64,000 nucleotides of DNA. Source: Candidatus Levyibacteriota bacterium (GTDB lineage Bacteria > Patescibacteriota > Microgenomatia > Levybacterales > UBA12049). The notes beneath the pieces are model-generated. The model did no database searches and was not told the origin of the DNA. It saw only the letters and a program-made list of their open reading frames with translations. The position numbers and the translations under genes were made by a program. The stretch covers positions 304,236-368,235 of the forward strand of contig CP066685.1 in assembly GCA_016432345.1 (NCBI GenBank), given 5' to 3'. Positions 25,317 through 62,979 of this stretch are shown here, piece by piece. Within the stretch, counting starts at the first letter, position 1. The number at the start of each line of letters is the position of its first letter.

Positions 25317-25335
25317 CTGCTATAGTATAGCAAAT

Positions 25336-46774: not shown

Positions 46775-46778
46775 ATCC

Positions 46779-47996
46779 ATGCGAATTTTCAATTTTCAAT
46801 TTTCAATTTTCAATTTTCTTGCGATATGTTATACAACAGTAATTCTTAGTTTGTTCTTTTTTTCCTTCACCCAGGTAGATTTAGGCCTAACACTTAGTCA
46901 ATGGTCTGTTTGGCAGGAATTTCAAAAATTTTTCCAAACTATTGGTTATTTTCAGCGGCCATTTTCAACCGTCTGGTATACTTTTTTGCTCATTTTTCTA
47001 TTTGGTTTTTACTTTGCCTTTTTATATTTAGCCCAAAAAAAATTACTTACAGAAAAGCAAATTACAATACTTATTTTGTTAACAAGCGCAATCTTATTTT
47101 TTTCCTACAACGCCTTTTCTTACGATTTATTTAATTACATTTTCGATGTAAAAATTGTTACGTTTTATCATCAAAATCCCTATACGCATCGGGCGCTTGA
47201 TTATATGGGTAATCCCATGCTTGGTTTTATGCATTGGACACAGCGGACTTATCCGTATGGACCCTTTTGGCTTTTGGTAACAATTCCTTTTGGTCTTCTT
47301 GATGGTTTTAGGCTACTGCTTCCCACGATGATGCTTTTTAAGGGACTGGCGTTTATTAGTTATTTAGGAACAGTACTTTTTTTAAAAAAGATTTTAGACA
47401 AAGTTTCTCCAAAAGACGCATTATTCGGCATAGTATTTTTTGCTTTTAATCCGCTTGTGTTAATCGAAAGTTTAGTATCAGCTCACAATGATATTTTTAT
47501 GATGTTCCTGTCTGTTTGGGCTTTTAAGCTCTTATTGGACAAAAAATATTTTCGTTCATTTTTATTACTTGTTTTATCAATAGGCGTAAAGTTTGCCACA
47601 GTATTTCTTATACCCGTTTTTTTACTAATTGGCTTTTTACTTTTTAAACAAAAAAAGATTAATTGGAATTTAATCTTTTTAATAATTACGCTGTTTATGA
47701 TTTTTCCCGTTGTCGTTGCTAGTGTTCGGACCAATTTTCAACCATGGTATCTTTTGTATATTTTGCCATTTGTGTCATTTCTTGCCAAAAAGTATTTCAT
47801 ACTCATTCCATCGGTTGTAATCTCTCTTTTTGCTCTGTTTGAATACGCGCCATTTTTATATACTGGTAATTGGAATTCACCAATTCCAGTACTTCTCGAA
47901 ACAATCAGATTTGTTGGTATTGGGATTTCGGCTTTTTTGGTAGTCATATGGTTTATACGAAATCGCTTTTTGGTAAGGCATAACGTGTTACAATAA
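46779..47996 (+). CDS. Polytopic membrane protein, probable GT-C-type glycosyltransferase (DUF2029/GT87-like)
   Basis: ORF 46674..47996, with the likely ATG at 46779, 4 nt after the upstream stop. About 11 TM helices. Loop NPYTHRALDYMGNPMLGFMHWTQRTYPYGPFW. Confidence 0.45.
   Translation: MRIFNFQFSIFNFLAICYTTVILSLFFFSFTQVDLGLTLSQWSVWQEFQKFFQTIGYFQRPFSTVWYTFLLIFLFGFYFAFLYLAQKKLLTEKQITILILLTSAILFFSYNAFSYDLFNYIFDVKIVTFYHQNPYTHRALDYMGNPMLGFMHWTQRTYPYGPFWLLVTIPFGLLDGFRLLLPTMMLFKGLAFISYLGTVLFLKKILDKVSPKDALFGIVFFAFNPLVLIESLVSAHNDIFMMFLSVWAFKLLLDKKYFRSFLLLVLSIGVKFATVFLIPVFLLIGFLLFKQKKINWNLIFLIITLFMIFPVVVASVRTNFQPWYLLYILPFVSFLAKKYFILIPSVVISLFALFEYAPFLYTGNWNSPIPVLLETIRFVGIGISAFLVVIWFIRNRFLVRHNVLQ
46784..46818 (+). 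repeat. Heptanucleotide array (AATTTTC) x5 perfect at codons 3-14 of the membrane protein gene
   Basis: Read directly. It encodes IFNFQFSIFNF. Confidence 0.97.
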
Positions 47997-48000
47997 TCAT

Positions 48001-49515
48001 ATGGACTTTGTTAACAAATACAAAAAAGAAATTATCTTTTTTGCACTCCTTGTACTTTTATTTTTCTTTACTCGTTTGTATAGATTAGATTCGTTACCTA
48101 TGTTTACCGACGAAGCAATTTATGTTCGGTGGTCGCAGATAGCAAAGCAGGATGCCAGTTGGAGGTTTATTTCTTTAACCGACGGCAAGCAGCCAACTTT
48201 TATTTGGACAACACTTATTATGATGCGTTTTGTTTCCGATCCACTGCTTGCTGGACGCTTGGCATCGGTTATGGCCGGTTTTTTCACTATGTTGGGTCTT
48301 TTTTTCTTAGGAAGGGAAGTTTTTTATAAACGCTGGATTGGTTTAATATCCAGCGCCTTGTACGTTGTATTTCCAATGGCGCTGGTGTACGACCGCATGG
48401 CTTTATACGATACAATGGTTGGCACTTTTGCCGTATGGAGCCTGTTTTTAGCAATTCTTCTGGTTCGAAATCTTCGTCTTGATACAGCGCTTTTATTGGG
48501 TTTTAGCGCAGGAGCAGGCGTGTTAACAAAAACATCTGGTTTTTTTAACATCTATTTATTGCCGCTGCTGTTTTTGCTTTTTGACTTCAAAAAACAGAAC
48601 TTGGCGCAAAGATTATTTCGTTTTGTGGGGCTTCTTCTGCTGGTTGTTGCGTTAACACAGCTTTATTATTCGGTGCTTAGACTTTCGCCATTTTTTTATA
48701 TCATTGCCGAAAAAAATGCTCTTTTTGTTTATACGTGGCACGACTGGTTAGATCACCCATTTAATTTTTTCTATGGAAATCTTAAAGGTGTATGGGATTG
48801 GTTTTTAACCTACACAACGTGGTCAGGAGTAATACTAATTTTTGGTTCATACGTTGTATACAAAAATCAGTGGCGGGAAAAGGCGGTGTTAACTCTTTGG
48901 TTTATTATTCCTTTTTTAACTCTGGCAATTTTTGGCAAAACTCTCTATCCGCGTTTTATTCTTTTTATGATTCTTTCTCTTTTGCCGCTTATGGCCTTAT
49001 CGCTTTATTTTCTGTCTGTGCAAAGTATCAAAAAACCGTTTATCGCTTTGTGTTTTATCATAGTTTTTGTTTTGCCGCTTCAGTCTGATTATTTTATTCT
49101 TTTGGATTTTGCTCACTCGCCAATACCCAAATCAGATCTGGGACAGTACATTAATAATTGGCCGGCCGGAGGGGGAGTAAAAGAGCTGGTGGCATTGCTT
49201 AAAGATCAGGCAGCCTATGGCAAAATCTTTGTGGCATCAGAAGGGACTTTTGGTAGCTTACCCACTTATACGGTAGAAATTTATTTAGGAAATAATCCAA
49301 ATATAGACAAACGGGGCATCTGGCCGATAACTGCGGAAATACCGGAGGATATTTTGGCCAAAGCCAAAATTATGCCAACATTTGTGGTGTTTAATAATTC
49401 AAGGTTTCCTCCGCCAAAATGGCCGCTTATTTTTGTGGCAAAATATCAAAAAGGCATCGGGGATGCATATATGAGTGTTTATAAAGTTGATCAGGCAAAG
49501 GTAAAACATAAATAG
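48001..49515 (+). CDS. GT39-like (ArnT/PMT_2) polytopic glycosyltransferase
   Basis: First loop FTDEAIYVRWSQ (DE motif), followed by more than 10 TM helices. Confidence 0.65.
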   Translation: MDFVNKYKKEIIFFALLVLLFFFTRLYRLDSLPMFTDEAIYVRWSQIAKQDASWRFISLTDGKQPTFIWTTLIMMRFVSDPLLAGRLASVMAGFFTMLGLFFLGREVFYKRWIGLISSALYVVFPMALVYDRMALYDTMVGTFAVWSLFLAILLVRNLRLDTALLLGFSAGAGVLTKTSGFFNIYLLPLLFLLFDFKKQNLAQRLFRFVGLLLLVVALTQLYYSVLRLSPFFYIIAEKNALFVYTWHDWLDHPFNFFYGNLKGVWDWFLTYTTWSGVILIFGSYVVYKNQWREKAVLTLWFIIPFLTLAIFGKTLYPRFILFMILSLLPLMALSLYFLSVQSIKKPFIALCFIIVFVLPLQSDYFILLDFAHSPIPKSDLGQYINNWPAGGGVKELVALLKDQAAYGKIFVASEGTFGSLPTYTVEIYLGNNPNIDKRGIWPITAEIPEDILAKAKIMPTFVVFNNSRFPPPKWPLIFVAKYQKGIGDAYMSVYKVDQAKVKHK

Positions 49516-49517
49516 CG

Positions 49518-51167
49518 ATGAATTTCTTCATCAAAAAACACGCGTACCTTCTGGCTATTTTGCTCTTTTCTTTTCTTCCGTTTATTACCACTTTTGCAAC
49601 CACATTGTATCCGTATACCCAGGATGGCTGGACGCATCTGGCTCGTGAAGGGGCTTTTTTTAAAGCCTTAAAAGATGGACAGATTCCTGTTAGGTGGGCG
49701 GGAGATTTAAATTATGGCTATGGCATGCCGCTTTTTAATTTCGCTTTTCATTTTCCCTATATTGTTGCCTCAAGTTTTATTTTTTTAGGGTTTGGTCTTG
49801 TTGATGCGTATAAACTTACAGTATTGTCTAGTTTTTTGTTATCTGGAATAAGTATGTATTTGTTTGCATCAGAATTTTTTAAAGACAAAAAAAAAGCAGT
49901 GCTTGCGGCAGTATCTTATCAATTCTTTCCATTTCATTTAGTAGATCTTTTAGTTCGGGGTAGTATTGGAGAGCTTTTTGCTTTTGCTCATTTGCCGCTT
50001 CTTTTATATGGAGCAACGCTTTTTTGGAGAAAAAAGAATAGATTTGGGATATTAATTGTTGCTTTGAGCACTGCATTTTTATTACTGTCGCATTTAGCAA
50101 CAGGTGGAATTTTTCTTATAATGGCAATTATTTTTGTGTTGTTATTTGGTAAAGATAGAAAAAGCAGATGGTACTTTTTGATGGCGGTAATTTTAGGATT
50201 ATTGCTTTCGGCATATTATGTGTTGCCAGCAATTTTCGAACATAAATATACCTATGGCGACTTATTTGCTCAAAATTTGTACAAACAGCATTTTGCCAAT
50301 CTTTCGACATTTTTTATCCCTAATTTTTTTAATATTAAGAGTTTGCGAATTGGCGATGTGCCAATACAAATAGGTTTATTTTCCATATTAGCTCTTTTTT
50401 TGTCAGTTATTATTTTTTTTCAAGAAAAGAGTAAGGAAGCCAAAAAACTTTTTTTGTTCTGTTTTTTCTTTTTTACAGCTTCATTATTTTTAACACAGCA
50501 GGTATCATCTTTTTTTTGGGAAAAAATGCCGCTTTTTACCCAATTTCAATTCCCCTGGCGCTTTTTAAGTATTATGGGTTTTGTTTTGTCGCTGCTTTCA
50601 GTCAGTTTTTTATCTATTCCTTTTTTCCAAAAAAAAATAGGGTTTTTAGTTTTGATTTTTGGTATTGTGTTTTCTACAATTTGGTATTGGACTCCACAAC
50701 TAGGTTTTATCAAAATAAACGAAGTTGATTATTGGAATTATCCCCTCAATACCACTTATTTTGGCGAAACAGATGTTATTTGGTCTGCGGGACCTGCAGG
50801 ATCTTATCCTAAAAACAGGATTGATGTTATTGGAGGCAAAGCAACAATTACAGATTTTGTTAAAAAATCAAACCTGCACACTTTTACTCTACAAGGAGAG
50901 ACGAAAAGTCAACTTGTCGATCACACACAATATTTCCCTGGCTGGCGTGTGTTTGTAGATAACAACGAAGTTCCCGTGCAGTTTCAAGACGAACATTGGA
51001 GAGGGCAAATAACTTTTTTTGTCCCAAAAGGAAAATATAATGTTGTTATTTCTTTTGGAGAAACAGCAATTCGCATATTTTCTGATTTATTATCTCTACT
51101 TACAATTATTTTCCTTTTTTTATTTTGTCTTTTCGATCCTAAAATTTTAAAAAGATTTTTTCTATGA
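49518..51167 (+). CDS. Polytopic GT-C-like membrane protein (family annotated as PTPS-related membrane protein), paralog 1 of 3
   Basis: N-terminal loop YTQDGWTHLAREGAFFKALKDGQIPVRWAGDLNYGYGMPLFNF and motif FPWRFL. Paralogous to 55158..56684 and 56692..58233. Confidence 0.55.
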   Translation: MNFFIKKHAYLLAILLFSFLPFITTFATTLYPYTQDGWTHLAREGAFFKALKDGQIPVRWAGDLNYGYGMPLFNFAFHFPYIVASSFIFLGFGLVDAYKLTVLSSFLLSGISMYLFASEFFKDKKKAVLAAVSYQFFPFHLVDLLVRGSIGELFAFAHLPLLLYGATLFWRKKNRFGILIVALSTAFLLLSHLATGGIFLIMAIIFVLLFGKDRKSRWYFLMAVILGLLLSAYYVLPAIFEHKYTYGDLFAQNLYKQHFANLSTFFIPNFFNIKSLRIGDVPIQIGLFSILALFLSVIIFFQEKSKEAKKLFLFCFFFFTASLFLTQQVSSFFWEKMPLFTQFQFPWRFLSIMGFVLSLLSVSFLSIPFFQKKIGFLVLIFGIVFSTIWYWTPQLGFIKINEVDYWNYPLNTTYFGETDVIWSAGPAGSYPKNRIDVIGGKATITDFVKKSNLHTFTLQGETKSQLVDHTQYFPGWRVFVDNNEVPVQFQDEHWRGQITFFVPKGKYNVVISFGETAIRIFSDLLSLLTIIFLFLFCLFDPKILKRFFL

Positions 51168-53524
51168 AAAAAGAATATCTTGCTCTATTTTTTTTAAGTC
51201 TTGTTTGTGCATTATTTTTTTATAAATTTATTTTTTTGGGGCTTGTTCCATTTCCCGGAGACTTGCTTATTGGAGAATACGGTCCATGGAAAACATATTC
51301 CTATTTAGGATATGTGCCAGGTAGTTTTCCTAATAAAGCCCAGTATTTCGATGTTATTCGTCAGTTATATCCTTGGAAAACTCTTGTTATAGATACGATA
51401 AAAAATGGCTCTTTTCCATTATGGAATCCCTATAATTTTTCAGGTAGCCCGCTTTTTGCCAATGTCCAGTCTGCTGTTTTATATCCGTTAAATGTTTTAT
51501 ATTTTATTTTTCCACAAATTATCGCCTGGAGTATATTAGTTTTCGCGCAACCTCTTATTGCTTGTTTATTTACTTATCTTTATGCAAGAAAAATTAATGT
51601 TGGAATTATTGGTAGTCTTTTCGCCGCTATTTCGTTTGGATTTTCTTCGTTTTTCTCGGTTTGGCTGGAATACAACACTATTGGACAAGTTATTTGTTAT
51701 CTGCCAATGGCGCTTTTTGCCGTCGAACAATTTTTTTCAAATAGAAAAAAACGTTTTATTTTATTATTTATATTTTCTCTTGTGTCAGCATCGCTGGCAG
51801 GGCATATTCAGGTATTTGCATACTTTTTTTTCTTTGTGGGAGTGTATATTTTTTTTAGGGCTAAAAGTTTGGGAATATCTTTTCCTTTTGTATTGTTTTT
51901 TTCCATGTTATTGTCTCTTGGTTTATCTTCGGTGCAGTTTATTCCCAGTTTAGAGCTTATCATATTTTCCGCCAGAAACACGCATCCTTATACGGAAATG
52001 GTTGAAAAAATTCTCATTCAGCCCTGGCAGCTCGTTATGCTTTTGGTGCCAGATTTTTTTGGCAACCCGGCAACCAGAAATTATTGGATACCAGATACCT
52101 ATGTTGGAAAAGTAACTTCAATTGGTTTTGTAGCTTTGATTTTTATTCTTTTTTCTTTTGTCAAAAAGAAACCATTTTTTTTCCGTTTTTTTTCTGTTGC
52201 CTCTTTGATTGTGTTAGTTTTTGCAACATTAAACCCCATAACTGCAATTTTATATCGTTTTGATATACCGTTTGTTTCCTCAAGCGCTCCAACGCTTGGT
52301 GTATTTATTTTTTGTTTTTCTATGTCAGTGCTCGCTGGATTTGGTATTGACGTTTTTCTTAGAGATGATAAATTAAAAAACAAATATTGCCCGTTCATCA
52401 TTGTTGGAGGCACACTTTTTGTTTTATGGATTGTTGTTTTTGCTTCCAAATATGATTTTGTTTCCTGGAAACAGATTTATTTAATAGGAATGAAGCCGCT
52501 TTTGTATGCATCGTTGCTTTTTGTTTTGACAAGTGTAGTGTTTTATATTGGATTTTTACTAAAACAAATAAAAATTTTTCTTGTGGTAATATTTCTTTTA
52601 TTGCAAATAGGAGATACATTTCGTTTTTTTCAAAAGTTTAATCCTTTTTCGCCAATACAGTCCGTTTTTCCCAAAGCAGATGTCTTAACGGTTCTACAAA
52701 ACAAAACAGGAATAAATCGTTTTTGGGGCTACGGAACTGCCGCAATTGAGGCAAATTTTGCCACACAGTATCGTCTTTTTTCGCCAGAAGGATATGATCC
52801 GCTTTATCCGAGTTGGTATGGTTCATTTCTTCCATCAACGCGCGACGGTAAGTTGCTTAGAGCATTTACTCCCCAAACCAGATCCGATGCAATCATATCA
52901 CAGGGATATGGCAAAGATAATTTTGTAAATGATTACCGAGATCGCGTACTTGATATGCTTGGTGTGTTTTATATTCTTGATCGAGACGCCAACGGTTTGT
53001 CTGAAAAATCATTCATTCCAGACCGATACCGTCTTATCTACCAAAAGGACGGGTGGAAAATTTTCGAAAACAAAAAAGCCTTACCGCGCGCATTTTTTGC
53101 CTCTCAATATCGTATTTTTACCACGCCAAAGGCATTTGAAGACGCATTTTTTGCCAAATCATTTGATCCCAAAGCGACCGTGTTGCTTAATGAAAATCCG
53201 GGAGTCTCATCTTTGGTAAATGGAGAAGCAGCCATTGTTTCGTATGCGCCGGAAAATGTGGTTATCAAAACAAATTCAGCAGGAGATAGTCTATTGGTGT
53301 TGTCCGATGCCTATTATCCCGGATGGCAGGCAACAGTCGATGGGCAACAAACCCACATATTTAAGGCCGACTATGCGTTTCGGGCAGTTGTCGTGCCAAA
53401 AGGCAGCCATGTGGTTATCTTTACATTTTTTCCATTGTCTTTTAAGATTGGAATAATGCTATCAGTAGTTAGTTTTGCTTTTGTCAGCATATTTGTTTTC
53501 TTTTCAAAAAAACAAAAAATATGA
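51164..53524 (+). CDS. YfhO family polytopic membrane glycosyltransferase
   Basis: LYPWKTLVIDTIKNGSFPLWNPYNFSGSPLFANVQSAVLYPLN is the YfhO N-terminal signature. 786 aa with a C-terminal beta-rich domain. Confidence 0.75.
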   Translation: MKKEYLALFFLSLVCALFFYKFIFLGLVPFPGDLLIGEYGPWKTYSYLGYVPGSFPNKAQYFDVIRQLYPWKTLVIDTIKNGSFPLWNPYNFSGSPLFANVQSAVLYPLNVLYFIFPQIIAWSILVFAQPLIACLFTYLYARKINVGIIGSLFAAISFGFSSFFSVWLEYNTIGQVICYLPMALFAVEQFFSNRKKRFILLFIFSLVSASLAGHIQVFAYFFFFVGVYIFFRAKSLGISFPFVLFFSMLLSLGLSSVQFIPSLELIIFSARNTHPYTEMVEKILIQPWQLVMLLVPDFFGNPATRNYWIPDTYVGKVTSIGFVALIFILFSFVKKKPFFFRFFSVASLIVLVFATLNPITAILYRFDIPFVSSSAPTLGVFIFCFSMSVLAGFGIDVFLRDDKLKNKYCPFIIVGGTLFVLWIVVFASKYDFVSWKQIYLIGMKPLLYASLLFVLTSVVFYIGFLLKQIKIFLVVIFLLLQIGDTFRFFQKFNPFSPIQSVFPKADVLTVLQNKTGINRFWGYGTAAIEANFATQYRLFSPEGYDPLYPSWYGSFLPSTRDGKLLRAFTPQTRSDAIISQGYGKDNFVNDYRDRVLDMLGVFYILDRDANGLSEKSFIPDRYRLIYQKDGWKIFENKKALPRAFFASQYRIFTTPKAFEDAFFAKSFDPKATVLLNENPGVSSLVNGEAAIVSYAPENVVIKTNSAGDSLLVLSDAYYPGWQATVDGQQTHIFKADYAFRAVVVPKGSHVVIFTFFPLSFKIGIMLSVVSFAFVSIFVFFSKKQKI

Positions 53525-55161
53525 AACAAAAATATCTTTTCTTTCTCTTTTTTATCATCTTATTTTCTGCAGCATTTCTTAGATTATATAAATTGGGTGA
53601 AGTACCCCCGGGTCCAAATCGAGACGAAGCATCAATTGGCTATACGGCTTATTCTTTATTACAAACAGGAAAAGATGAATATGGAAGGTGGCATCCACTT
53701 TCTTTTCAGTCATTTGGCGATTGGAAACTTCCTTTATATGTATACGCAACAGAAATATTTGTCAAATTTTTGGGTTTATCTGCTTTTGCAATTCGTTTAC
53801 CTTCCGTCATTTTTGGCATAGGCAGCGTTGTTCTTACTTTTTTTCTTGCCAAAAGACTTTCCCAAAGTCTAGCAGTGGCGTTTTTTGCCATGTTTTTTAT
53901 GGCATTTTCTCCCTGGAGTATTCATTTTTCCCGTGTTGCCTCCGAAGCAAATACGGCAGTATTTTTAACTATCACCGCAACCATTTTTTTCTATAAAGGA
54001 TTGCAAAAACAAACATATTTTATAATGTCTGCCATTTTTTTTGCCCTCACGTATTTTACTTATGCTGGAAATTACATTTTTACAACACTGCTAGTGTTAG
54101 GACTGACATTTTTATATCGTGAAGAGATTTTTAAAAAAACATATGGTATTGTGGCCGCTATTTTATTTATCCTACTTTCTATTTCTATCGGTTATATAAC
54201 ATTTTCTGCGAATACCACAAAAATTTCTGGTATTGGAATTTTTGGCAACTCGGCAGTGGTGCATGCACAGATAGAAATTCCCCGAAATGAGTATGCAAAT
54301 CCACAATCCTTTTTCGCGCGGCTGTTTTATAACAGAGTCTCTTTTGCTGCCGAGCATTTTTTTCAAAATTACCTGATGTCTTTTTCCCCGGAATTTTTAT
54401 TTGTTAAAGGCGGCGCTAATCGCGCTCATAACATTGCCAATTTTGGCAACATGTATTTACTTGATGTTTTACCTCTTTTTCTAGGAATCTTTTACTTGCT
54501 ATCTATAAAAAAAAACAAGGAGATAACAGTTGTTTTGTGGTGGTTTTTTATTAGTCCAATAGCAGCAAGTATTACCAAAGACGCCCCGCACTCGGCCCGC
54601 ATGCTTGCTATTCTTCCTATTTTACCGCTCGTTTGTTCTTTTGGCGTCTTTTATTTTTTGTCAAAAATTAGGCAGCGTTATAAACAAGTTTTATATATTG
54701 CTATGGCGGGTTTTATTTTTGCATATGCATACAGTATAGGAATGTATATTGATCGTTACTTTATTCATTTCCCCAAAAATGAAAGCGAAAATTGGGGAGC
54801 AGGATATCAATATCTTACAACTATTTTATCTGCGGACGAATATGTCGGTAAAGAAGTAATTATGTCAAAACCCGAGCATTCTCCATATATTTTTTTATTA
54901 TTCTATTCACGATTTGATCCAAAGATATATCAACAAATTGCCATTCGTTATCCAATAACAGAAGATGGTTTTGTGCATGTTAACGGATTTAATAGATATG
55001 TATTTAGAGAGATTGATTGGGAAAAGGATATGCAAAGATTAAATACAATTCTTATTGAAGAATCTTCATCTGTTTCGGATTCAATTAAAAAAATGTCTAA
55101 AACAAAAGAGATCACACTTTTGAATGGTAAATCCATGTTTACCATTGTAGAAACGAAATGA
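53521..55161 (+). CDS. GT39-like (ArnT/PMT_2) polytopic glycosyltransferase
   Basis: RDEASIGYTAYSLLQTGKDEYGRWHPL loop, followed by more than 10 TM helices. Confidence 0.7.
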   Translation: MKQKYLFFLFFIILFSAAFLRLYKLGEVPPGPNRDEASIGYTAYSLLQTGKDEYGRWHPLSFQSFGDWKLPLYVYATEIFVKFLGLSAFAIRLPSVIFGIGSVVLTFFLAKRLSQSLAVAFFAMFFMAFSPWSIHFSRVASEANTAVFLTITATIFFYKGLQKQTYFIMSAIFFALTYFTYAGNYIFTTLLVLGLTFLYREEIFKKTYGIVAAILFILLSISIGYITFSANTTKISGIGIFGNSAVVHAQIEIPRNEYANPQSFFARLFYNRVSFAAEHFFQNYLMSFSPEFLFVKGGANRAHNIANFGNMYLLDVLPLFLGIFYLLSIKKNKEITVVLWWFFISPIAASITKDAPHSARMLAILPILPLVCSFGVFYFLSKIRQRYKQVLYIAMAGFIFAYAYSIGMYIDRYFIHFPKNESENWGAGYQYLTTILSADEYVGKEVIMSKPEHSPYIFLLFYSRFDPKIYQQIAIRYPITEDGFVHVNGFNRYVFREIDWEKDMQRLNTILIEESSSVSDSIKKMSKTKEITLLNGKSMFTIVETK

Positions 55162-56684
55162 AAAAACAAATATTATATATTTTGCTGTTTCTTGCTGTTT
55201 GCGTTCCAGTACTTTTACCATTATTTCATCCTGGATTTTTTCAAAGTGATGACGGGGAGTGGATGATTATTAGATTTTCTGCTTTTCATCAGGCCATCAT
55301 CAACGGACAGTTTCCGGTGAGATTTTTGCAAAGGCTAAATTTCGGATATGGATATCCTGTTGCCAATTTTCTTTACCCGGGTTTTATGTATTTTGGAGAA
55401 ATACTAAAGCTTTTGGGGTTTGGGTTTGTTGATACAATAAAAATAACACTTGGGATTTCTCTTGTTGAATCGGTTGTTTTTTCTTATTTTTGGTTACGAT
55501 CTCTTTTTGGAAAGTGGCCAGCGATTATAGGAGCTTTTTTTTATCTTTATGCGCCTTACCACCTTTTTGATGTTTACAAAAGAGGATCAGTAGGAGAAAC
55601 GCTAGCTATTGCTATAGTGCCGTTTATTCTCTGGCAAATTGAGCGAAAAAGCTTGTTTTGGACAAGTCTTGGAGTAGCTCTTCTTATTCTTTCTCACAAC
55701 ACACTTGCTGTTTTATTTCTACCAGTAATCATTATATATGGATTTTTACGACGTGCTACAAGCTACGTGCTACAAGCTACGTGCTACGGTCTTGGTCTCT
55801 CCGCCTTTTTTTGGATACCGGCTTTATTTGATCTTCAATATACCATATTTGTCAAGACCCAGGTTGCCAGCTGGCAAACATATTTTTCTCATTATTCACT
55901 TGTTGGTTTATCAACATTTTCGATTCTTTTTATTTCTTTTATTTTTCTTATTTCTGGCAAATTCTTTAATACTTCGAAGTATGGAAAAAATGTGGTGATT
56001 TTTTTCTTTGTTTTAGGCGTAATTTCAGTTTTTTTTTCTACTTCAGCAAGTACTATATTTTGGAGATTTTTACCTGTTTCTTTTGTTCAGTTTCCATTTC
56101 GTTTTTTATCGCTAGCAATTTTAAGCGCTGCTTTTTTGTTTGCTTATATTCTTGATAAAATTAAAGAAAAGAATAAAATGATTATATCCATAGTTGGACT
56201 TAGTCTACTTGGATTTTCAGCAGCTCCTTATATAAAACCAGAAAGCTTTTTTGATAAGGGCGATTTGTATTATGCAACCAACGAGGCAACTACTACTGTG
56301 CAGGATGAGTATATGCCTGTTTGGGTAAAGCAAAAACCAACAGAACATCTTAAAAATAAAATGGAGATTTTAGAAGGAAAAGGAAGAATAAAAAACCTTG
56401 TTTTTAATAATAAAAAAATACATTTTGATCTAAATATGGAAAATAACGGAAGGATAAGAGTAAACACAGTCTATTTTCCAGGATGGAAAGCATATATAGA
56501 TGGCAGAGAAAGTAAAATAGATTACAGTAATAAATATGGCGTTATGGACATTTTTGTTGTAAAAGGCCCAAATGCGGTAGAATTTATTTTTTCAGAAACA
56601 CCAATGCGATTATTCAGCGATGTTATTTCATTTGCAAGTTTGCTTATTTTTTTGGGAGTATCTATTCGTTGGAAAATAAGGTAA
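55158..56684 (+). CDS. Polytopic GT-C-like membrane protein, paralog 2 of 3
   Basis: GFFQSDDGEWMIIRFSAFHQAIINGQFPVRFLQRLNFGYGYPVANF and FPFRFL. Confidence 0.55.
   Translation: MKKQILYILLFLAVCVPVLLPLFHPGFFQSDDGEWMIIRFSAFHQAIINGQFPVRFLQRLNFGYGYPVANFLYPGFMYFGEILKLLGFGFVDTIKITLGISLVESVVFSYFWLRSLFGKWPAIIGAFFYLYAPYHLFDVYKRGSVGETLAIAIVPFILWQIERKSLFWTSLGVALLILSHNTLAVLFLPVIIIYGFLRRATSYVLQATCYGLGLSAFFWIPALFDLQYTIFVKTQVASWQTYFSHYSLVGLSTFSILFISFIFLISGKFFNTSKYGKNVVIFFFVLGVISVFFSTSASTIFWRFLPVSFVQFPFRFLSLAILSAAFLFAYILDKIKEKNKMIISIVGLSLLGFSAAPYIKPESFFDKGDLYYATNEATTTVQDEYMPVWVKQKPTEHLKNKMEILEGKGRIKNLVFNNKKIHFDLNMENNGRIRVNTVYFPGWKAYIDGRESKIDYSNKYGVMDIFVVKGPNAVEFIFSETPMRLFSDVISFASLLIFLGVSIRWKIR
55753..55787 (+). 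repeat. 14-nt tandem array (GTGCTACAAGCTAC) x2.5, equivalent to alternating 7-mers GCTACAA/GCTACGT
   Basis: Read directly. It encodes RATSYVLQATCYG. Confidence 0.95.
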
Positions 56685-56691
56685 AAGAAAT

Positions 56692-58233
56692 ATGAAACAT
56701 TGGGGATTTTTTATCATCTTGGCAATTTCTTTTTGGGCGGTAAGATCTCTTTTTGCTCCTGGGTTTTTCCCAATACATGATGATACGCAGGTGGCCCGAG
56801 TTTTTGAAATGGGAAAAGTATTACAGACTGGAGTATTTCCTGCCCGTTGGGTGCCGGATTTAGGGTATGGTTATGGATACCCAATCTTTAACTATTATGC
56901 GCCGCTTGCGTATTATGTTGGTGGAATTATAACGCTTATTGGTGTAGATGCCCTTATTGCCACAAAAATTATGATTGGTCTTGGAGTCCTTCTTGCAGGT
57001 ATTTTTATGTACTTTCTTGTTCGAGAGCTTTGGGGAGAATTGGGAGGAATTATCGCAGCCCTTTTTTATATTTATGCACCATACCATGCTCTACAAATTT
57101 ATGTAAGAGGAGCGGTAGGAGAGCTTTGGTCATATGCTTTTATTCCTCTTGTGTTTTACGGATTGTATAAAATATATACAGAAAAAAAATGGAAATGGGT
57201 AATTGTTGGATCAATAGGATATACCGGAGTAATTCTGTCTCATAATTTAACAGCAATCATGCTTACACCTTTTTTACTCATTGTTATATTGTTTTATTGC
57301 TTCATTTTTTATAAAAATAGGCAACTATACGCTATACGCTATTCACTATACGCTGTTTTACTTGGTTTGCTTCTTAGTGCTTTTTATTGGATTCCTGCTG
57401 TTTTTGAAATGCAGTATACCAATGTGCAGTCTCAAATCGGCGGCGGCGCAGATTTTCGTGATCATTTTGTTTGTTTAAACCAGCTTTGGGATAGCCCTTG
57501 GGGTTTTGGCGGCTCAACAAAGGGATGTATAGATGGACTTTCTTTTAAAATAGGAAAACTGCATTTAATTACAGTGATAATGTCTCTCTTTGTAGTTTTA
57601 AGTTTTATATGGAGGCGGAGATATATACGACTTGGTATCATTCTTTTTTCTCTTGTTGGGTTTTTTGCATCAGTATTTTTGATGTTGGAAATCTCCAAAT
57701 CAATTTGGGAGACAGTTCCGTTGATCGCATTTTTTCAGTACCCATGGAGGTTTTTATTGTTTACTTCTTTTTTTTCATCATTTCTTGTTGGTGCAATAGT
57801 TTGGTTTTTAGAACAAGAATTTGGAAAAGTAAAATACTTTAATACTATTCTGTATTTAAGTACTGCAATTTTAGTGTTTCTTCTTCTATTTTTTAATATC
57901 AAACTTTTTCAGCCGCAGACAATACTGTTAAAAACAGCGCAAGATTATACAAACGACAGAGCTCTCAAATGGATAGCTTCAAAAACATCAGATGAATATT
58001 TACCAACAAATGTCAAACTTCCAATATCTGACTATGATATTCCAAAAAAAAATACAAATGAGAAAAGTGTTGCAGTAACGGTAGAGAATCAAAAAGACCT
58101 ATTTAAACGTTATAAAGATCAGCTTCCTCCTTTGCGATTTGAGCAAACAAATTTAGAAAAGATCGCCAACATATTATCCGTTATTGGTATAGGGGTACTT
58201 ATTATTGGTATAATCTATGCTAGGAAGAAATGA
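56692..58233 (+). CDS. Polytopic GT-C-like membrane protein, paralog 3 of 3
   Basis: GFFPIHDDTQVARVFEMGKVLQTGVFPARWVPDLGYGYGYPIFNY and YPWRFL. Confidence 0.55.
   Translation: MKHWGFFIILAISFWAVRSLFAPGFFPIHDDTQVARVFEMGKVLQTGVFPARWVPDLGYGYGYPIFNYYAPLAYYVGGIITLIGVDALIATKIMIGLGVLLAGIFMYFLVRELWGELGGIIAALFYIYAPYHALQIYVRGAVGELWSYAFIPLVFYGLYKIYTEKKWKWVIVGSIGYTGVILSHNLTAIMLTPFLLIVILFYCFIFYKNRQLYAIRYSLYAVLLGLLLSAFYWIPAVFEMQYTNVQSQIGGGADFRDHFVCLNQLWDSPWGFGGSTKGCIDGLSFKIGKLHLITVIMSLFVVLSFIWRRRYIRLGIILFSLVGFFASVFLMLEISKSIWETVPLIAFFQYPWRFLLFTSFFSSFLVGAIVWFLEQEFGKVKYFNTILYLSTAILVFLLLFFNIKLFQPQTILLKTAQDYTNDRALKWIASKTSDEYLPTNVKLPISDYDIPKKNTNEKSVAVTVENQKDLFKRYKDQLPPLRFEQTNLEKIANILSVIGIGVLIIGIIYARKK
57325..57354 (+). 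repeat. Heptanucleotide array (CTATACG) x2, CTATTCA, CTATACG, CTG
   Basis: Read directly. It encodes QLYAIRYSLYA. Confidence 0.92.
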
Positions 58234-58958
58234 AAAAACACAGCGTAGAAATAACAGTACCTGTCTATAATGAAGAAAAGGAATTGGAAGGAAATATCCT
58301 TAAACTTGCTGATTTTTGTAAAGAAAATCTAAAAAGCTACGATTGGCATATTACTATTGCCGATAATGCTTCAACGGACAACACACCGGTTATTTCGTCA
58401 ATTCTATCAAAGAAAAATAGCGATATATTTCATCTGCGTTTAGAACAAAAGGGCAGGGGAAGAGCGGTAAAACGTGCATGGAGCAATGCGGAGACAGATT
58501 ATTGTATCTATATGGATTTGGATTTATCTACAGATTTAAAACATTTACCGGAGCTTATTCATGTTCTTGAAAAAGGTTGCGATATAGCAATTGGTTCACG
58601 TTTAGCAAAAGGCGCCCGTGTTGAGGGGCGAACATTGCTTCGCGAAATTACATCAAGAGTTCTTAATATTGTTTTTATAAAACTTCCGTTCCAGACACAT
58701 TTTACCGATGCGCAATGTGGATTTAAAGGGGTAAAAAAGAAAGTAGTCTTAGAACTCTTGCCAAAAATTAAAGATAATGACTGGTTTTTTGATGGAGAAC
58801 TTTTAATCGTTGGCGAAAAAAGCGGTTACAAAATTTGCGAACTTCCTATTCATTGGGTAGATAATCCAGGATCAACAGTTAGACTTGTCTCAACAATCTG
58901 GGGAGATATAATGGTTATTTGGAGGTTGTTTAGGACCAAGCCATGGAGAAATCAGTAG
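58230..58958 (+). CDS. GT2 polyprenol-phosphate hexosyltransferase-like
   Basis: ITVPVYNEE, ITIADNASTDNT, YMDLDLSTDL and TDAQCGFKG. Confidence 0.85.
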   Translation: MKKHSVEITVPVYNEEKELEGNILKLADFCKENLKSYDWHITIADNASTDNTPVISSILSKKNSDIFHLRLEQKGRGRAVKRAWSNAETDYCIYMDLDLSTDLKHLPELIHVLEKGCDIAIGSRLAKGARVEGRTLLREITSRVLNIVFIKLPFQTHFTDAQCGFKGVKKKVVLELLPKIKDNDWFFDGELLIVGEKSGYKICELPIHWVDNPGSTVRLVSTIWGDIMVIWRLFRTKPWRNQ

Positions 58959-58959
58959 T

Positions 58960-60414
58960 ATGGATGAGCTTGACATTTTGACAATTGGAAAAAGGTCTGC
59001 GCATGGAATTTTAGCTCTTATTTCGCGGACATTTTTTTTAAGTATTATTTCTTTTGTTTCATCACTTGTTATTTTTACAGTTTTAACACCTTTAGATTTA
59101 GGAATTTACACAGCTGCCATTGCAGGCCAGCGGATTATTAGTTTTTTTACTGATTTTGGTTTTGGCGCAGCATTGATTCAAAAAAAAGAATCTCTTGAAA
59201 AGAAGGAATTAAAAACAGTATTTAGCGTGCAAGTAATTGCAACGTTGTTTTTATTTGTTGTGGTTGTAGTTTTTAGAGATCAGATTGCTAATTTTTTCCA
59301 GCTTGGAGAAAAAGCGCTAAGATTATTTCTTGTGCTTGTTTTCTTAATTTTTTTATCTTCTTTTAAGATTATTCCCTCAATTCTTCTAGAAAGAGAAATT
59401 CATTTTCAGAAATTAATTATTCCTCAAATTATTGAATCATTTATTTTTAATGCAATTCTTGTTATTTTAGTGCTTTTGGGGTATGGTATTGATAGTTATA
59501 GCTTTGCATTTCTTGTTTCTGCATTTATAGGAATTCCATTTTATTATTTTGTTTCTCCATGGAAAATTAGTTTTGGCATAGATAAGCAATCATTAAAACA
59601 TCTTCATTTTGGCGCACAATTTCAGGCAAAAAATATTCTTGCGGCAGTAAAAGATGATCTACTTACAGTTTATTTGGCAAAAACCTTGTCTTTTGTTGAT
59701 CTTGGATATATTGGATTTGGTCAACGTAATGCATTTTTTGCTTACCGCTTTATTGTTGACAATGTAACAAAAGTCACGTTTTCAACATACGCTAGAATGC
59801 AGGATGATCTTAAACTTTTAAAATCTGTTATTGAAAAATCTTTGTTTCTTGTAAGTTCTGCAATTTTTCCTTTGCTTTTCGGACTTATTATTGTTGCTCC
59901 GTACATAATTTTATATTTTCCAAAATGGCAGCAAAAGTGGGAACCTGCAATTATAAGTTTAACATTTTTTTCTTTGAATGCGGCTGTGTCTTCGATATCT
60001 GGAATTCTTGTGACAGTGCTTGACGCAACTGGTAGAGTAAGACAAACATTATATCTTATGATTTTGTGGACAGCGGCAACATGGATTATAACTCCGATAA
60101 GCATTTCTCTTTTTGGCTATAACGGCGTTGCCGTTACGTCTTTTCTTATAACACTTACTATCAGTATAACCGTTTATCTTGTAAAAAAGATTGTAAACTT
60201 TAGATTTTTTTCAAGTATTTATAAACCTCTTTTTTGTTCAGTCGTAATGAGTGTGTTTGTTTTTTTAACTGCGAAAATGTTTGTTGCTAATTTTATTAGC
60301 TTGGGTATTATAATAATGTTGGGAGCAGTAGTTTATATTTCTTTAATGTCTTTTTTTGCCAAAGAAATTAGAGAGGATATAAAACAATTAATTAAAAGTT
60401 ATGAAAAAAAATAA
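58960..60414 (+). CDS. Wzx-like oligo/polysaccharide flippase (MOP superfamily)
   Basis: 484 aa, about 12-14 TM helices, with a typical N-terminal RSAHGILALISRTFFLSIISFV and a conserved GFGAALIQ block. Confidence 0.75.
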   Translation: MDELDILTIGKRSAHGILALISRTFFLSIISFVSSLVIFTVLTPLDLGIYTAAIAGQRIISFFTDFGFGAALIQKKESLEKKELKTVFSVQVIATLFLFVVVVVFRDQIANFFQLGEKALRLFLVLVFLIFLSSFKIIPSILLEREIHFQKLIIPQIIESFIFNAILVILVLLGYGIDSYSFAFLVSAFIGIPFYYFVSPWKISFGIDKQSLKHLHFGAQFQAKNILAAVKDDLLTVYLAKTLSFVDLGYIGFGQRNAFFAYRFIVDNVTKVTFSTYARMQDDLKLLKSVIEKSLFLVSSAIFPLLFGLIIVAPYIILYFPKWQQKWEPAIISLTFFSLNAAVSSISGILVTVLDATGRVRQTLYLMILWTAATWIITPISISLFGYNGVAVTSFLITLTISITVYLVKKIVNFRFFSSIYKPLFCSVVMSVFVFLTAKMFVANFISLGIIIMLGAVVYISLMSFFAKEIREDIKQLIKSYEKK

Positions 60415-61312
60415 ATTGTCCATTGTTATTAGCGCATACAATGAAGAAGGGAAGATTACGCAATGTCTTGAGTCGGCTTCTTTTGCTGATGAGATTGTTT
60501 TTGTTGATAATTCTTCGGCAGACAAAACAGTTGAAATTGCCAAAAAATTTACTGACAAAATTTTTATTAAGCCAAATAATTTAATGCTTAATACTAATAA
60601 AAATTTTGGTTTTTCCAAAGCAACAGGTGATTGGATTTTAAGCCTGGATGCAGATGAGAGAATTACTCTTGAATTAAAAGAAGAGATGTTATCTGCTACA
60701 CGCCACGCGCCATCTGGTGTTAACGGCTTTTGGCTTCCGCGCAAAAATATAATTTTTGGCAAATGGATCAAGCATACAGGTTGGTATCCCGATTATCAAT
60801 TAAGATTATTTAAAAAAGATATGGGAAGTTTCTCTGCCAAACATGTTCATGAAATGATTACTCTTAAAGGAGAAACAGCTTATGTTAAAGAACATATATT
60901 ACATTATAATTACGATTCCATTTCGCAATTTCTAACAAAGCTTGATCTTATCTACACCTCAAATGAGGCCGAACAATTGTTAGGAAATGGATATGTAATA
61001 ACTTGGGCGGATGCGCTTAAAATGCCAATAAAAGAATTTGTAAGTAGATTTTTTGCACGAGAAGGATACAAAGACGGTTTTCATGGCTTGATGCTTTCTA
61101 TACTTATGGCATTTTATCATTTTATTGTTTTTGCCAAAATTTGGGAAAAACAAGGATTTAATCAAATTAGTGATGCCAAGATTTTACCGCAGACAGAAAT
61201 AGAAGTTAGAAATGCGCATAAAGAGATAATGTTTTGGTTTTTTAATGAGAAAATAAAGTCAGCAAATGGAATCAAAAAACTGCTATTTAGACTACGTCGT
61301 CATCTCATCTAA
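60401..61312 (+). CDS. GT2 glycosyltransferase (paralogous to 62218..62979)
   Basis: LSIVISAYNEE, FADEIVFVDNSSADKT and LSLDADER. Confidence 0.85.
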   Translation: MKKNKLSIVISAYNEEGKITQCLESASFADEIVFVDNSSADKTVEIAKKFTDKIFIKPNNLMLNTNKNFGFSKATGDWILSLDADERITLELKEEMLSATRHAPSGVNGFWLPRKNIIFGKWIKHTGWYPDYQLRLFKKDMGSFSAKHVHEMITLKGETAYVKEHILHYNYDSISQFLTKLDLIYTSNEAEQLLGNGYVITWADALKMPIKEFVSRFFAREGYKDGFHGLMLSILMAFYHFIVFAKIWEKQGFNQISDAKILPQTEIEVRNAHKEIMFWFFNEKIKSANGIKKLLFRLRRHLI

Positions 61313-62221
61313 ATGAATAAAGTAAGTATAGTTATTGTAAATTTTAACGGAAAAAAAGATACATTTCAATGTATAGAAAGTGTTGAAAAATTACAACCCG
61401 CCAGCTGGCGGGCAAATTACAAATTACAAATTATTGTTGTTGATAACGGTTCTGAAGAGGAGTTCAAAAAAGATGAAATTACAGTTTTAAGAAACGAAAA
61501 AAATCTCGGATTTTCTGGGGGAAATAATGTTGGAATCAGATATGCTTTGGGAAATGGAGCAGATTATGTAATGCTTTTGAACAACGACACGATAGTTAAT
61601 CAGCATTTAGTTGAAGAATTATTAAAGGTTGCCAACTTGGATAAAAGAATAGGAGTTGTAGTTCCTAAAATTTATTTTGCCAAAGGCCACGAATTTCATA
61701 GAGAGCGATATAAAGAAGAAGAGCGGGGAAAAGTAATTTGGTATGCGGGAGGGGTAATAGATTGGAATAATGTCGTAGGAATTCATAGAGGAGTTGATAA
61801 AGTAGATCATGGTCAATATGACAAAGTGGAGAAAACAGATTTTGCAACAGGATGTTGCATGTTAATTAAAAAGGAAGTTTTCGAACATGTTGGTTTATTC
61901 GATGAGAAGTATTTTTTATATTATGAAGATGCAGATTTTAGTATGAGGGCGATTAGGGGGGAATACAAAATCGTATATATGCCAAAGGCATTTCTTTGGC
62001 ATATTAATGCTGGTTCGACAGGGGGGTCAGGGTCGGCTCTTCAGGATTATTATACGACTAGAAACAGAATGCTTTTCGGAATGAGATATGCGCCATTGCG
62101 ATCAAAAGTAGCATTAATTAGAGAAAGTGTAAGTTTATTTTTTTCTGGGAGAAATTGGCAGCGTGTTGGAGTACGTGATTTTTATATCTCCCGTTTTGGG
62201 CGAGGAAGTTTTTTGATATGA
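61313..62221 (+). CDS. GT2 glycosyltransferase (rhamnosyltransferase/WbbL-like)
   Basis: VSIVIVNFNG, IIVVDNGS, NLGFSGGNN and YYEDADFSMR. Confidence 0.85.
   Translation: MNKVSIVIVNFNGKKDTFQCIESVEKLQPASWRANYKLQIIVVDNGSEEEFKKDEITVLRNEKNLGFSGGNNVGIRYALGNGADYVMLLNNDTIVNQHLVEELLKVANLDKRIGVVVPKIYFAKGHEFHRERYKEEERGKVIWYAGGVIDWNNVVGIHRGVDKVDHGQYDKVEKTDFATGCCMLIKKEVFEHVGLFDEKYFLYYEDADFSMRAIRGEYKIVYMPKAFLWHINAGSTGGSGSALQDYYTTRNRMLFGMRYAPLRSKVALIRESVSLFFSGRNWQRVGVRDFYISRFGRGSFLI
61397..61412. repeat. Perfect 16-nt GC-rich palindrome CCCGCCAGCTGGCGGG inside the GT2 coding sequence
   Basis: Read directly. It encodes PASWRA and is flanked by AAATTAC units on both sides. Confidence 0.95.
61414..61434 (+). 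repeat. Heptanucleotide array (AAATTAC) x2 plus AAATTAT; a further AAATTAC unit lies at 61388-61394, upstream of the palindrome
   Basis: Read directly. It encodes NYKLQII. Confidence 0.9.
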
Positions 62222-62979
62222 AATTATCCGCAATTATTATTGCAAAAGATGCAGAAGAACACATTGCAGATGCGATAAATTCTGTTTCCTTCGCAGACGA
62301 GACTATTGTTATCGATAATGGATCGATTGATAGAACATTGAATGTAGTAAGTAAAATGGGAGCAAAAAGTTTTTCATATCGGGCAAAGGGCTTTGCTGAT
62401 GCAAGAAACTTTGGTTTGCAAAAAGCAAAAGGCGAGTGGGTTTTCTATATTGATTCAGATGAGAGAGTAACAGATGTCTTGCAAAAAGAAATTGAATCAG
62501 CAATAAAAAATAAGGAATCAGATATTGTTGCATTTAAAGTGAAACGAAAGAATTATTACTATGGAAATCATCAGTGGCCGTATATTGAAAAGTTAGAAAG
62601 GTTATTTAGAAAAAAAAATCTTGAAGAATGGTATGGAGATTTACATGAAAGTCCAAAAATTAAAGGATCAGTTGGTTTGCTGGATGGTTTTTTGCTTCAC
62701 TACACGCGTCAAAACCTTGAATCTATGGTGGAGAAAACTATTGCCTGGTCGAAAGTGGAAGCAGAGTTGCGGTTTAGAGCAAATCATCCAAAGATGGCCT
62801 GGTGGCGTTTTTTTCGAGTTATGCTCACTGCATTTTATGATTCATACATTAAGCAAGGTGGATGGAAAGCAGGAATAATGGGTTTAATAGAAAGCATTTA
62901 TCAATCATTTAGCATGTTTATTACTTACTCTCGACTTTGGGAATTTCAAAACAAGCAAAATGGAGAAGAAAAAAATTAA
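62218..62979 (+). CDS. GT2 glycosyltransferase
   Basis: LSAIIIAKDAEE, FADETIVIDNGSIDRT and FYIDSDER. Confidence 0.85.
   Translation: MKLSAIIIAKDAEEHIADAINSVSFADETIVIDNGSIDRTLNVVSKMGAKSFSYRAKGFADARNFGLQKAKGEWVFYIDSDERVTDVLQKEIESAIKNKESDIVAFKVKRKNYYYGNHQWPYIEKLERLFRKKNLEEWYGDLHESPKIKGSVGLLDGFLLHYTRQNLESMVEKTIAWSKVEAELRFRANHPKMAWWRFFRVMLTAFYDSYIKQGGWKAGIMGLIESIYQSFSMFITYSRLWEFQNKQNGEEKN

Follow-up and report, generated by a model that had tools for sequence, protein, structure and literature searches.

Heptanucleotide arrays keep one site and one codon register in paralogous GT-C glycosyltransferase genes of Levybacteria while their units turn over

Short tandem arrays of seven-nucleotide units lie in many protein-coding genes of a 64-kb stretch of a Candidatus Levyibacteriota genome (contig CP066685.1; the whole stretch is referred to as the window), and two of them occupy the same site and the same codon register in neighbouring paralogs that encode PTPS_related GT-C glycosyltransferases, genes 55158 and 56692 (genes without a name are designated by their first coordinate). 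The coincidence between the two paralogs is one of site persistence and shared register, and both arrays belong to a class found across Levybacteria and other Microgenomates, with arrays of about 30-37 nt and 4.3-5.3 copies each and with units that vary by site. The class sits in many protein genes, essential ones included, at poorly conserved segments. We analysed the window together with 80 species-representative loci (1.47 Mb in total; designated L001 and so on), which are the surroundings of homologs from Levybacteria, Gottesmanbacteria and other Microgenomates, and these 81 sequences provided 144 open reading frames (ORFs) of the glycosyltransferase family; every comparison reported here is between species-level consensus assemblies. 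An assembly artefact is ruled out by arrays at identical sites in independent assemblies from different projects.

The array of gene 55158 is composed of alternating units, its region reading TTTTTACG ACGTGCT ACAAGCT ACGTGCT ACAAGCT ACGTGCT AC GGTCTTGGT. Tandem Repeats Finder (TRF) describes positions 55751-55787 either as period 14 (2.6 copies, 100% matches) or as period 7 (5.4 copies, 74% matches); it is a heptamer array with two unit variants, with no separate 14-mer class to be invoked. The region in gene 56692 reads GGCAA CTATACG CTATACG CTATTCA CTATACG CT GTTTTA and was detected by TRF with 82% matches at period 7. In a three-way protein alignment the two arrays fall into one set of columns, immediately before GL(G/L)LSAF(F/Y)WIPA, the 55158 array ending 3-4 residues before S215 and the 56692 array 7 residues before the motif, and neither is an insertion relative to the paralogs. 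The third paralog, 49518, has the non-repetitive GKDRKSRWYFLMAV at this site and a period-7 score of 8-9 out of 18, versus 14 and 16 for the two window arrays; a perfect array scores 18. All three paralogs have Y(-10), L(-8) and A(-6). With codons numbered relative to the motif 'GL|xLSAF', both window arrays have CTA at -8, TAY at -10 and GCT at -6 and -13. The sequence-only reading of the window had reported arrays in 55158 and 56692 but none in 49518, a nearly identical loop position and a GCTA core common to the two units. TRF, the sequence itself and the period-7 scores agree on the first of these observations, the position proved to be the same in alignment column and codon register, and the shared core is real.

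All three host proteins exceed the Pfam gathering cut-off for PF10131 (26.4 bits; Table 1). The 56692 and 55158 proteins share 33% identity, and the latter is 100% identical to HYV37_02010 of a Candidatus Levyibacteriota metagenome-assembled genome (MAG). The AlphaFold (AF2) model of 55158 (predicted local distance difference test score (pLDDT) 88, predicted template-modelling score (pTM) 0.89) has AftD, STT3, AglB, PglB, ALG12 and ArnT as its top Foldseek matches in the PDB (E values down to 5.6e-5, template-modelling scores of about 0.4-0.5), and the host proteins are accordingly assigned a multi-pass membrane architecture with a GT-C fold; the label 'GT-C paralogs' is correct because the PF10131 matches and the fold matches of the model coincide. 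In the model, the array comprises a turn (residues 198-200) and the first 10 residues of helix 201-214 (pLDDT of about 92), followed by a continuation helix (216-228) bearing the motif, whose columns S215, F217, W219, P221 and A222 are near-invariant in a 24-sequence alignment. The GT-C arrays are thus predicted to encode the turn between two transmembrane helices plus the start, about 10 residues long, of the helix leading into SAF(F/Y)WIPA. Immediately upstream of the array site the orthologs are rich in K and R, which under the positive-inside rule suggests that the site lies on the cytoplasmic face. An 86-aa alternative-frame ORF (55738-55998, plus strand) starts just upstream of the 55158 array; it was rejected as a gene and regarded as a by-product of the stop-free heptamer, since units surviving in genes are stop-free in all three frames and the arrays therefore open spurious ORFs.

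Strict period-7 arrays (at least 19 of 21 matches at a given lag, lags 4 to 15 being scanned) were confined within the 144 family ORFs to one interval, with eight of eight lying 38-52 nt upstream of the SAF(F/Y)W motif, and no array of another period was found at this site in the same ORFs. About 20 of the 144 genes have an array at the site when decayed ones are counted, and more than 100 have no period-7 signal. The array-bearing genes fall into two groups, the 55158-like G-type (GLSAFFW) and the 56692-like L-type (LLSAFYW); genes of the 49518 type lack arrays (0 of 8 orthologs). In Levybacteria the units at the site have the form CTAYNNN (CTATACG, CTATTTA, CTATCTA, CTACATA, CTATCCG and, in the window, CTACAAG/CTACGTG), and a single register is shared by both paralog groups, with CTA at codons -8 and -15, TAY at -10 and NCT at -6 and -13. 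More than ten orthologous arrays in other Levybacteria have this register and the CTA(Y) core, and 56692 orthologs in the same register carry CTATACG in L001 (3.6 copies) and in L018.

A simple neighbour-joining (NJ) tree of the family, calculated with the array region left out, groups the window L-type gene with about ten contiguous orthologs of 55-73% protein identity to it, all with an array or a remnant (clade A: L001, L002, L003, L006, L010, L014, L020, L049, L074 and the window, with L018, at 50% identity, nearby). G-type arrays were found in only six of these same genomes, all of which also have an L-type array, and are interspersed among array-less G-type orthologs. In a further group, clade C (L052, L056 and L071), all three arrays are 100% perfect and coincide in start, end and register; the units (GTATCAC, TGGTCAT and TTCTCAC) agree at only 4 of 7 positions, the flanking DNA is 59-65% identical, and the core is TCAY, offset by 3 nt. 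Because identity is perfect within each array while the units have diverged as much as the flanks, the clade C sequences show concerted evolution, the arrays having been re-homogenised after speciation.

The sister genome of the window, L001 (a different species, at 70-73% protein identity), shows how unevenly the two paralogs can behave. Its 56692 ortholog has kept CTATACG, whereas its 55158 ortholog has a decayed remnant, 'CCATACG CCGTACG CTATTTTC', that is about 90% identical over about 40 nt to the array region of its neighbour, the two proteins being 37% identical; the perfect ACGTGCTACAAGCT array of the window is absent from L001. Since the states in L001 and the window are so uneven, the two paralogs must have turned over at very different rates during one and the same period, and the earlier suggestion that the pair might provide an internal clock for array evolution fares poorly. 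The same holds in part for the suggestion that one ancestral array kept turning over after the duplication: positional homology and turnover are borne out, and an origin before the duplication is not, as almost every one of the 80 Microgenomates loci has the G/L duplication and the arrays are confined to sub-clades of the NJ tree. The ortholog phylogeny that had been proposed as a check shows array-bearing genes clustered and does not place the array before the duplication. Judged from these sequences, the array most likely arose after the G/L duplication, and the second paralog would then most likely have gained its array by conversion or by parallel seeding on the conserved Y-x-L-x-A codon pattern, an order of events that we infer. 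Conversion between neighbouring paralogs may have occurred; as a general within-genome process it was not accepted, since the similarity of G and L arrays in the six genomes with both was 0.571 within genomes versus 0.501 between genomes (permutation 46/720), a weak and non-significant excess despite the striking case of L001.

Unit identity has to be read with caution in such comparisons. (CTATACG)n in 2.6-7.3 copies occurs in more than 120 unrelated metagenome contigs (L081-L160 among them) with GC contents of 0.22-0.69, both in long ORFs and in non-coding DNA, and for that reason unit similarity alone is weak evidence of descent. These contexts came from a metagenome scan for CTATACGCTATACGCTAT that sought a copy-number series of 56692 orthologs, and none of the more than 120 was in a PTPS_related gene.

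The arrays of the two paralogs represent a much broader class that extends through the genome and the lineage, a point that the sequence-only reading had missed. TRF identified about 14 period-7 arrays of about 4-5 copies in the window, all in frame, with at least 10 different units in the 64 kb and nearly all within ORFs. Strict arrays numbered nine at lag 7 and six at lag 14, with none at any other lag from 4 to 15, and the chance control of 200 Markov-3 simulations yielded none at lag 7. A similar excess was present in the 80 loci, where the strict count was 36 for lag 7 and 20 for lag 14 versus 7-12 for other lags, and where periods 7, 14 and 21 made up 90 of 293 TRF arrays (43 of period 7 and 38 of period 14). 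The lengths of perfect period-7 runs were bimodal (16-21 nt and 29-37 nt), with almost none between the modes and none longer, whereas perfect runs of other periods showed a monotonic decay in length.

The arrays are translated and filtered by protein-level selection. Most of them (54 of 63) lie inside ORFs of at least 150 aa, and the array peptide follows its flanks in hydropathy (Spearman 0.58, P=2e-5); with rising flank hydropathy the A content of the array decreases and its T content increases, so that soluble loops have A-rich units and membrane segments T-rich ones. Every array-bearing ORF of the GT-C family is full length, and no frameshifted allele was present at the GT-C site among 157 motif matches in the 81 sequences; the single frameshift candidate, in L067, was rejected as a chance SHN-like match within an intact ORF. 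Measured against solved homologs, the arrays change protein length little or not at all. The SufC array peptide aligns with EYTVERGEILL of 2D2E without gaps; in SufS the first array, NFQFSIFNFQSNLNFQKS, aligns with DGTLQIDVLDEWL-SEKT of 5VPR with one 1-residue gap and the second, QNYEFRIMNY, with AAHEHALLEY of the same structure without gaps; the GltX segment aligns with 2O5R without gaps or with -2; and the three RecJ arrays amount to +1 to +4 aa relative to 8Y30. That arrays are always 21-nt (7-aa) insertions was therefore rejected as a rule, because the alignments of SufC, SufS and GltX have no gap, or almost none, at the arrays, and loop lengths with and without arrays overlap. A difference of this size does hold at the unconstrained N-terminus of the GT87-like gene, where the window has five copies versus about 1.6 in L001 and the L001 protein is exactly 7 aa (three units, 21 nt) shorter. 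Copy number also differs between these two species (about 70% protein identity) at 61413 (3 in the window versus 4.9 in L001) and at 57325 (4.3 versus 3.6).

Table 1. Period-7 arrays, host genes and reference segments
Feature	Position	Strand	Basis or remark
Array in 55158; ACGTGCT/ACAAGCT alternating, perfect 14-nt superunit x2.6; encodes residues 198-210, RRATSYVLQATCY	55749-55787	+	TRF, sequence
Array in 56692; CTATACG x4.3, third unit CTATTCA; encodes LYAIRYSLYA	57325-57354	+	TRF
Segment of 49518 homologous to the arrays (GKDRKSRWYFLMAVILGL)	50148-50201	+	Y(-10), L(-8), A(-6) kept; non-periodic codons TAC, TTG, GCG
PTPS_related GT-C glycosyltransferase, G-type (GLSAFFWIPA)	55158-56684	+	PF10131, E=8.3e-9, 34.9 bits
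PTPS_related GT-C glycosyltransferase, L-type (LLSAFYWIPA)	56692-58233	+	PF10131, E=1.6e-8, 33.9 bits
Third PTPS_related paralog, without array	49518-51167	+	PF10131, 54.1 bits
SAFFWIPA motif of 55158 (S215-A222), positional anchor	55800-55823	+	24-sequence alignment
SAFYWIPA motif of 56692	57376-57399	+	Protein alignment, family survey
AATTTTC x4.7, near N-terminus of PMT_2 GT-C gene	1070-1102	+	TRF
AGTTCAA x4.6 in SufC, length-neutral	4477-4508	+	TRF; gap-free alignment to 2D2E
Composite AATTTTC-type array in SufS, length-neutral	7402-7460	+	TRF; alignment
GAATTAT x4.1 in SufS	7872-7900	+	TRF; alignment
AAATCTC x4.6 in pyruvate:ferredoxin oxidoreductase (PFOR)	10397-10428	+	TRF
AATTCAA x3.6 in SecF	20256-20280	+	TRF
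AATCTCA/AATGTCA x2.7 (14-nt) in RecJ	25692-25729	+	TRF; alignment
AATACAA x4.7 in RecJ	25910-25942	+	TRF; alignment
TCAGGAA x5 in RecJ	26296-26330	+	TRF; alignment
AAATCTC-type, about 8 degenerate units, in glutamyl-tRNA synthetase (GltX), length-neutral	32493-32550	+	TRF; alignment
AATTTTC x5, directly after ATG of GT87-like membrane protein	46784-46818	+	TRF; comparison with L001
CAAATTA x3 in GT2 gene	61413-61433	+	TRF; L001 has the same unit x4.9
Arrays at the GT2 loop of relatives	L002 14847, L003 15456, L007 15854, L014 15732, L016 17413, L022 15672, L029 16274, L052 11950		

The most likely cause of this pattern, and the one that we consider probable as a whole, is replication misalignment in steps of 7 nt filtered by protein-level selection, and the pattern is explicable without a regulatory role. 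Misalignment of this kind would both create arrays and re-homogenise them, and the survivors would be only those that preserve the frame, by a net gain of three units (7 aa) or by length-neutral overwriting, and only where the unit, translated in its three frames, is compatible with the surrounding protein. A repetitive site would keep slipping, so that its array persists through speciation while the unit drifts and is re-homogenised. On this view the 56692-type array has the age of a Levybacteria sub-clade. That of the 55158 type most likely followed the duplication, either as a copy from the paralog next to it or by parallel seeding, and in the lineage of the window it was recently re-expanded with a two-variant 14-nt unit; a perfect and length-neutral array such as that of SufC might, as a guess, result from transient 7-nt dislocation and realignment. 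A strong bias to 7-nt misalignment in this lineage is the most economical assumption, and it fits the excess of heptanucleotide simple sequence repeats (SSRs) in prokaryotes and the 7-nt polymerase contact that has been proposed. Several points weigh against 7-nt misalignment with selection. The mechanism is one that we infer, and simple slippage would change length by 7 nt and shift the frame; it leaves unexplained how about 11 codons of SufC or SufS were turned into a perfect array without a change in length. The narrow mode near 33 nt fits about 1.5-2 copies plus three units, a reading at odds with the length-neutral cases. That eight of eight strict arrays lie in one 15-nt interval of genes of about 1500 nt does not follow in any obvious way from loop tolerance alone, and the weakly raised within-genome similarity of G and L arrays leaves conversion between paralogs not established. 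Moreover, the assemblies are consensus sequences and blind to copy-number variation at the population level.

A further reading is that Microgenomates possess a distinct mutational process by which about 30-37 nt of coding DNA at a time would be overwritten in place, at no change in length, by a 7-mer from the spot repeated in tandem, with concerted evolution then maintaining the result at fixed protein positions for long periods. We regard this as a rather unlikely reading; the basis of such a process might be a particular polymerase or a deficiency in repair rather than ordinary SSR slippage, and in a weaker variant the GT-C site may additionally be used as a frame switch. Descent of both window arrays from one array older than the duplication, with independent turnover in each paralog since, appears improbable. 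It would account for the position, register and CTA core that the two arrays share with each other and with both ortholog groups, for the 81-83% identity of the G-type arrays of L002 and L003 to the L-type array of L049, and for Y(-10), L(-8) and A(-6) in all three window paralogs. It has to contend, however, with a duplication that is far more widespread than the arrays, with the absence of a period-7 signal from most of the family and of any array from the 49518 type, with the restriction of G-type arrays to genomes that also have an L-type array, and with the different and offset core of clade C.

The opposite extreme, independent and recurrent origin de novo at a tolerant turn and helix start, would make the codons of Y-x-L-x-A-I (TAY NNN CTA NNN GCT ATH) a 7-nt proto-repeat, and is in our judgement quite improbable. 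Across the family, Y(-10), L(-8) and a small residue at -6 are conserved in part, also in genes that lack an array; 49518 encodes these residues by non-periodic codons; arrays of different units recur in many other loops; and the same unit arises in unrelated contexts. Yet the array-bearing genes are phylogenetically clustered and not scattered, orthologous arrays keep their unit across 50-73% protein identity (window, L001 and L018), and the three clade C arrays coincide exactly in start, end and register. A functional alternative is that the arrays form contingency loci, in which gain or loss of one 7-nt unit shifts the frame and switches GT-C paralogs of surface glycosylation, giving phase-variable glycans comparable to those produced by NeuO of Escherichia coli K1. 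The unit length is not a multiple of three and lies inside the coding sequence, the arrays are located mid-gene in paralogous surface-glycan enzymes, their position is kept and their units vary, which is also seen in many phase-variable genes, the perfection of some arrays implies that slippage is ongoing, and heptanucleotide phase variation is documented for NeuO and HMW1A. Switching of this kind is distinctly improbable all the same: arrays also occur in the single-copy essential genes for SufC, SufS, GltX, SecF, RecJ and PFOR, where an OFF state would be lethal, glycosylation genes, which take up about a quarter of the window, hold only 5 of its 14 arrays, none of the 157 motif sites is frameshifted, and copy numbers are low at 4-5. 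Diversification by a diversity-generating retroelement was set aside, the pattern being one of tandem periodicity and not of A-site substitution against a template copy.

Recurrent arrays were also observed at sites outside the PTPS_related family. A second hot spot is a GT2 loop, 'DaDER..EI[array]GYWIPR' (GYWIPRKN), with arrays in eight genomes and eight different units, and with none in the window ortholog. Arrays recur at four more sites, of which two are other positions in GT2 genes, one is at the N-terminus of the GT87-like protein (with arrays also in L049, L020 and L011) and one is in YfhO. In the window the PTPS_related genes belong to a co-directional cluster (46674-62979) of seven genes for GT-C-type membrane glycosyltransferases (in the order GT87-like, PMT_2, PTPS_related, YfhO, PMT_2 and two PTPS_related); GT2 genes and a Polysacc_synt_3 flippase come next, and overlapping stop and start codons are common. 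The array of the GT2 gene 61313-62221 (AAATTAC in this phase) is interrupted in frame by a perfect 16-nt GC-rich palindrome, CCCGCCAGCTGGCGGG (61397-61412; KLQ-PASWRA-NYKLQII), the sole such sequence in a window of 35% GC; the L001 array at this site is uninterrupted. The recJ gene (25306-26973) has three separate heptamer arrays with three different units. The 7402-7460 array of SufS and the GltX array are of double length and degenerate, with about eight units of mixed AATTTTC and AAATCTC type, and are still approximately length-neutral versus solved homologs; they may represent two rounds of expansion or two fused arrays.

None of the approximately 14 period-7 arrays of the window is in a minus-strand gene (about 12.6-16.0, 21.8-25.3, 27.0-28.3, 30.6-31.6, 34.2-34.9, 37.5-38.0, 40.5-41.8 and 42.9-44.3 kb) versus about three expected by length, and arrays of soluble loops are A-rich on the plus (coding) strand; the confinement to plus-strand genes could be a bias of strand or replication direction, or chance. 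Among the sequences used, many third-party annotation MAG records (L003, L006, L009 and others) are titled 'uncultured Gammaproteobacteria bacterium' though their gene clusters are clearly of Microgenomates type, and L020 is titled 'Pacearchaeota archaeon'; errors of labelling or binning are the probable reason.

Since 2007 heptanucleotide repeats have counted as the commonest class of long SSRs in prokaryotes; no mechanism or role has been accepted for them, and they have been regarded as mainly non-coding. Here they are abundant in the genes of an ultra-small genome of the candidate phyla radiation (CPR), where they undergo translation, have a composition tuned to the protein around them, are length-neutral in essential enzymes and stay in position across species while their units turn over. 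This provides a tractable system for studying slippage-type mutation against protein-level selection, the reason why 7 nt is special, and the repeat-driven share of loop and helix-end divergence in CPR proteins. For annotators and phylogeneticists, such arrays yield spurious alternative-frame ORFs, 7-aa-periodic 'low-complexity' peptides and apparent hypervariable loops. The length-neutral overwriting process, if true, would mean that protein sequences of CPR bacteria also evolve in a way that has not been described before.

With solved GT-C members (AftD, STT3/AglB/PglB and ArnT) the host proteins share the fold and the Pfam signature; no repeat-encoded transmembrane segment is described for those members, and the array lies outside the PF10131 family definition. 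Our search of the available literature on heptanucleotide repeats or SSRs in CPR or Patescibacteria found no description of them. According to Mrazek et al. (2007), as related in PMC4679880 and PMC4692102, heptanucleotide repeats are the most abundant class of long SSRs in most prokaryotic genomes, and a 7-nt polymerase contact was proposed to favour slippage; units in multiples of three are given as likeliest in coding regions (Mrazek, Guo & Shah 2007, via the same two articles). The arrays described here resemble those long SSRs in being tandem head-to-tail 7-nt units in excess over chance and over other unit lengths, but differ in their location within ORFs, in frame and often in essential genes, and in their length neutrality, narrow size near 33 nt, positional conservation and concerted evolution. 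In NeuO (E. coli K1 prophage CUS-3), which modifies a surface polysaccharide, and in the HMW1A/2A promoter of Haemophilus influenzae, the copy number of a 7-nt unit is reported to set the reading frame or expression; those arrays are described as long and as differing from isolate to isolate, with a position at the 5' end or in the promoter, whereas the present ones have 4-5 copies mid-gene, show no OFF allele and occur in housekeeping genes too. There is also a likeness in form to the short tandemly repeated repetitive (STRR) sequences of cyanobacteria, GGGNATC of Nostoc and Xanthomonas and TAACTGA of Beggiatoaceae, which are likewise heptamer tandem arrays of few copies, a preference for four units having been reported (PMC4692102). 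As far as PMC4692102 and PMC4679880 describe them, these have one fixed unit or a few in each genome, lie mostly between genes, are under-represented in coding sequence, and have been proposed to act via G-quadruplexes or translational regulation; the arrays of Levybacteria, in contrast, are diverse, coding and translated.

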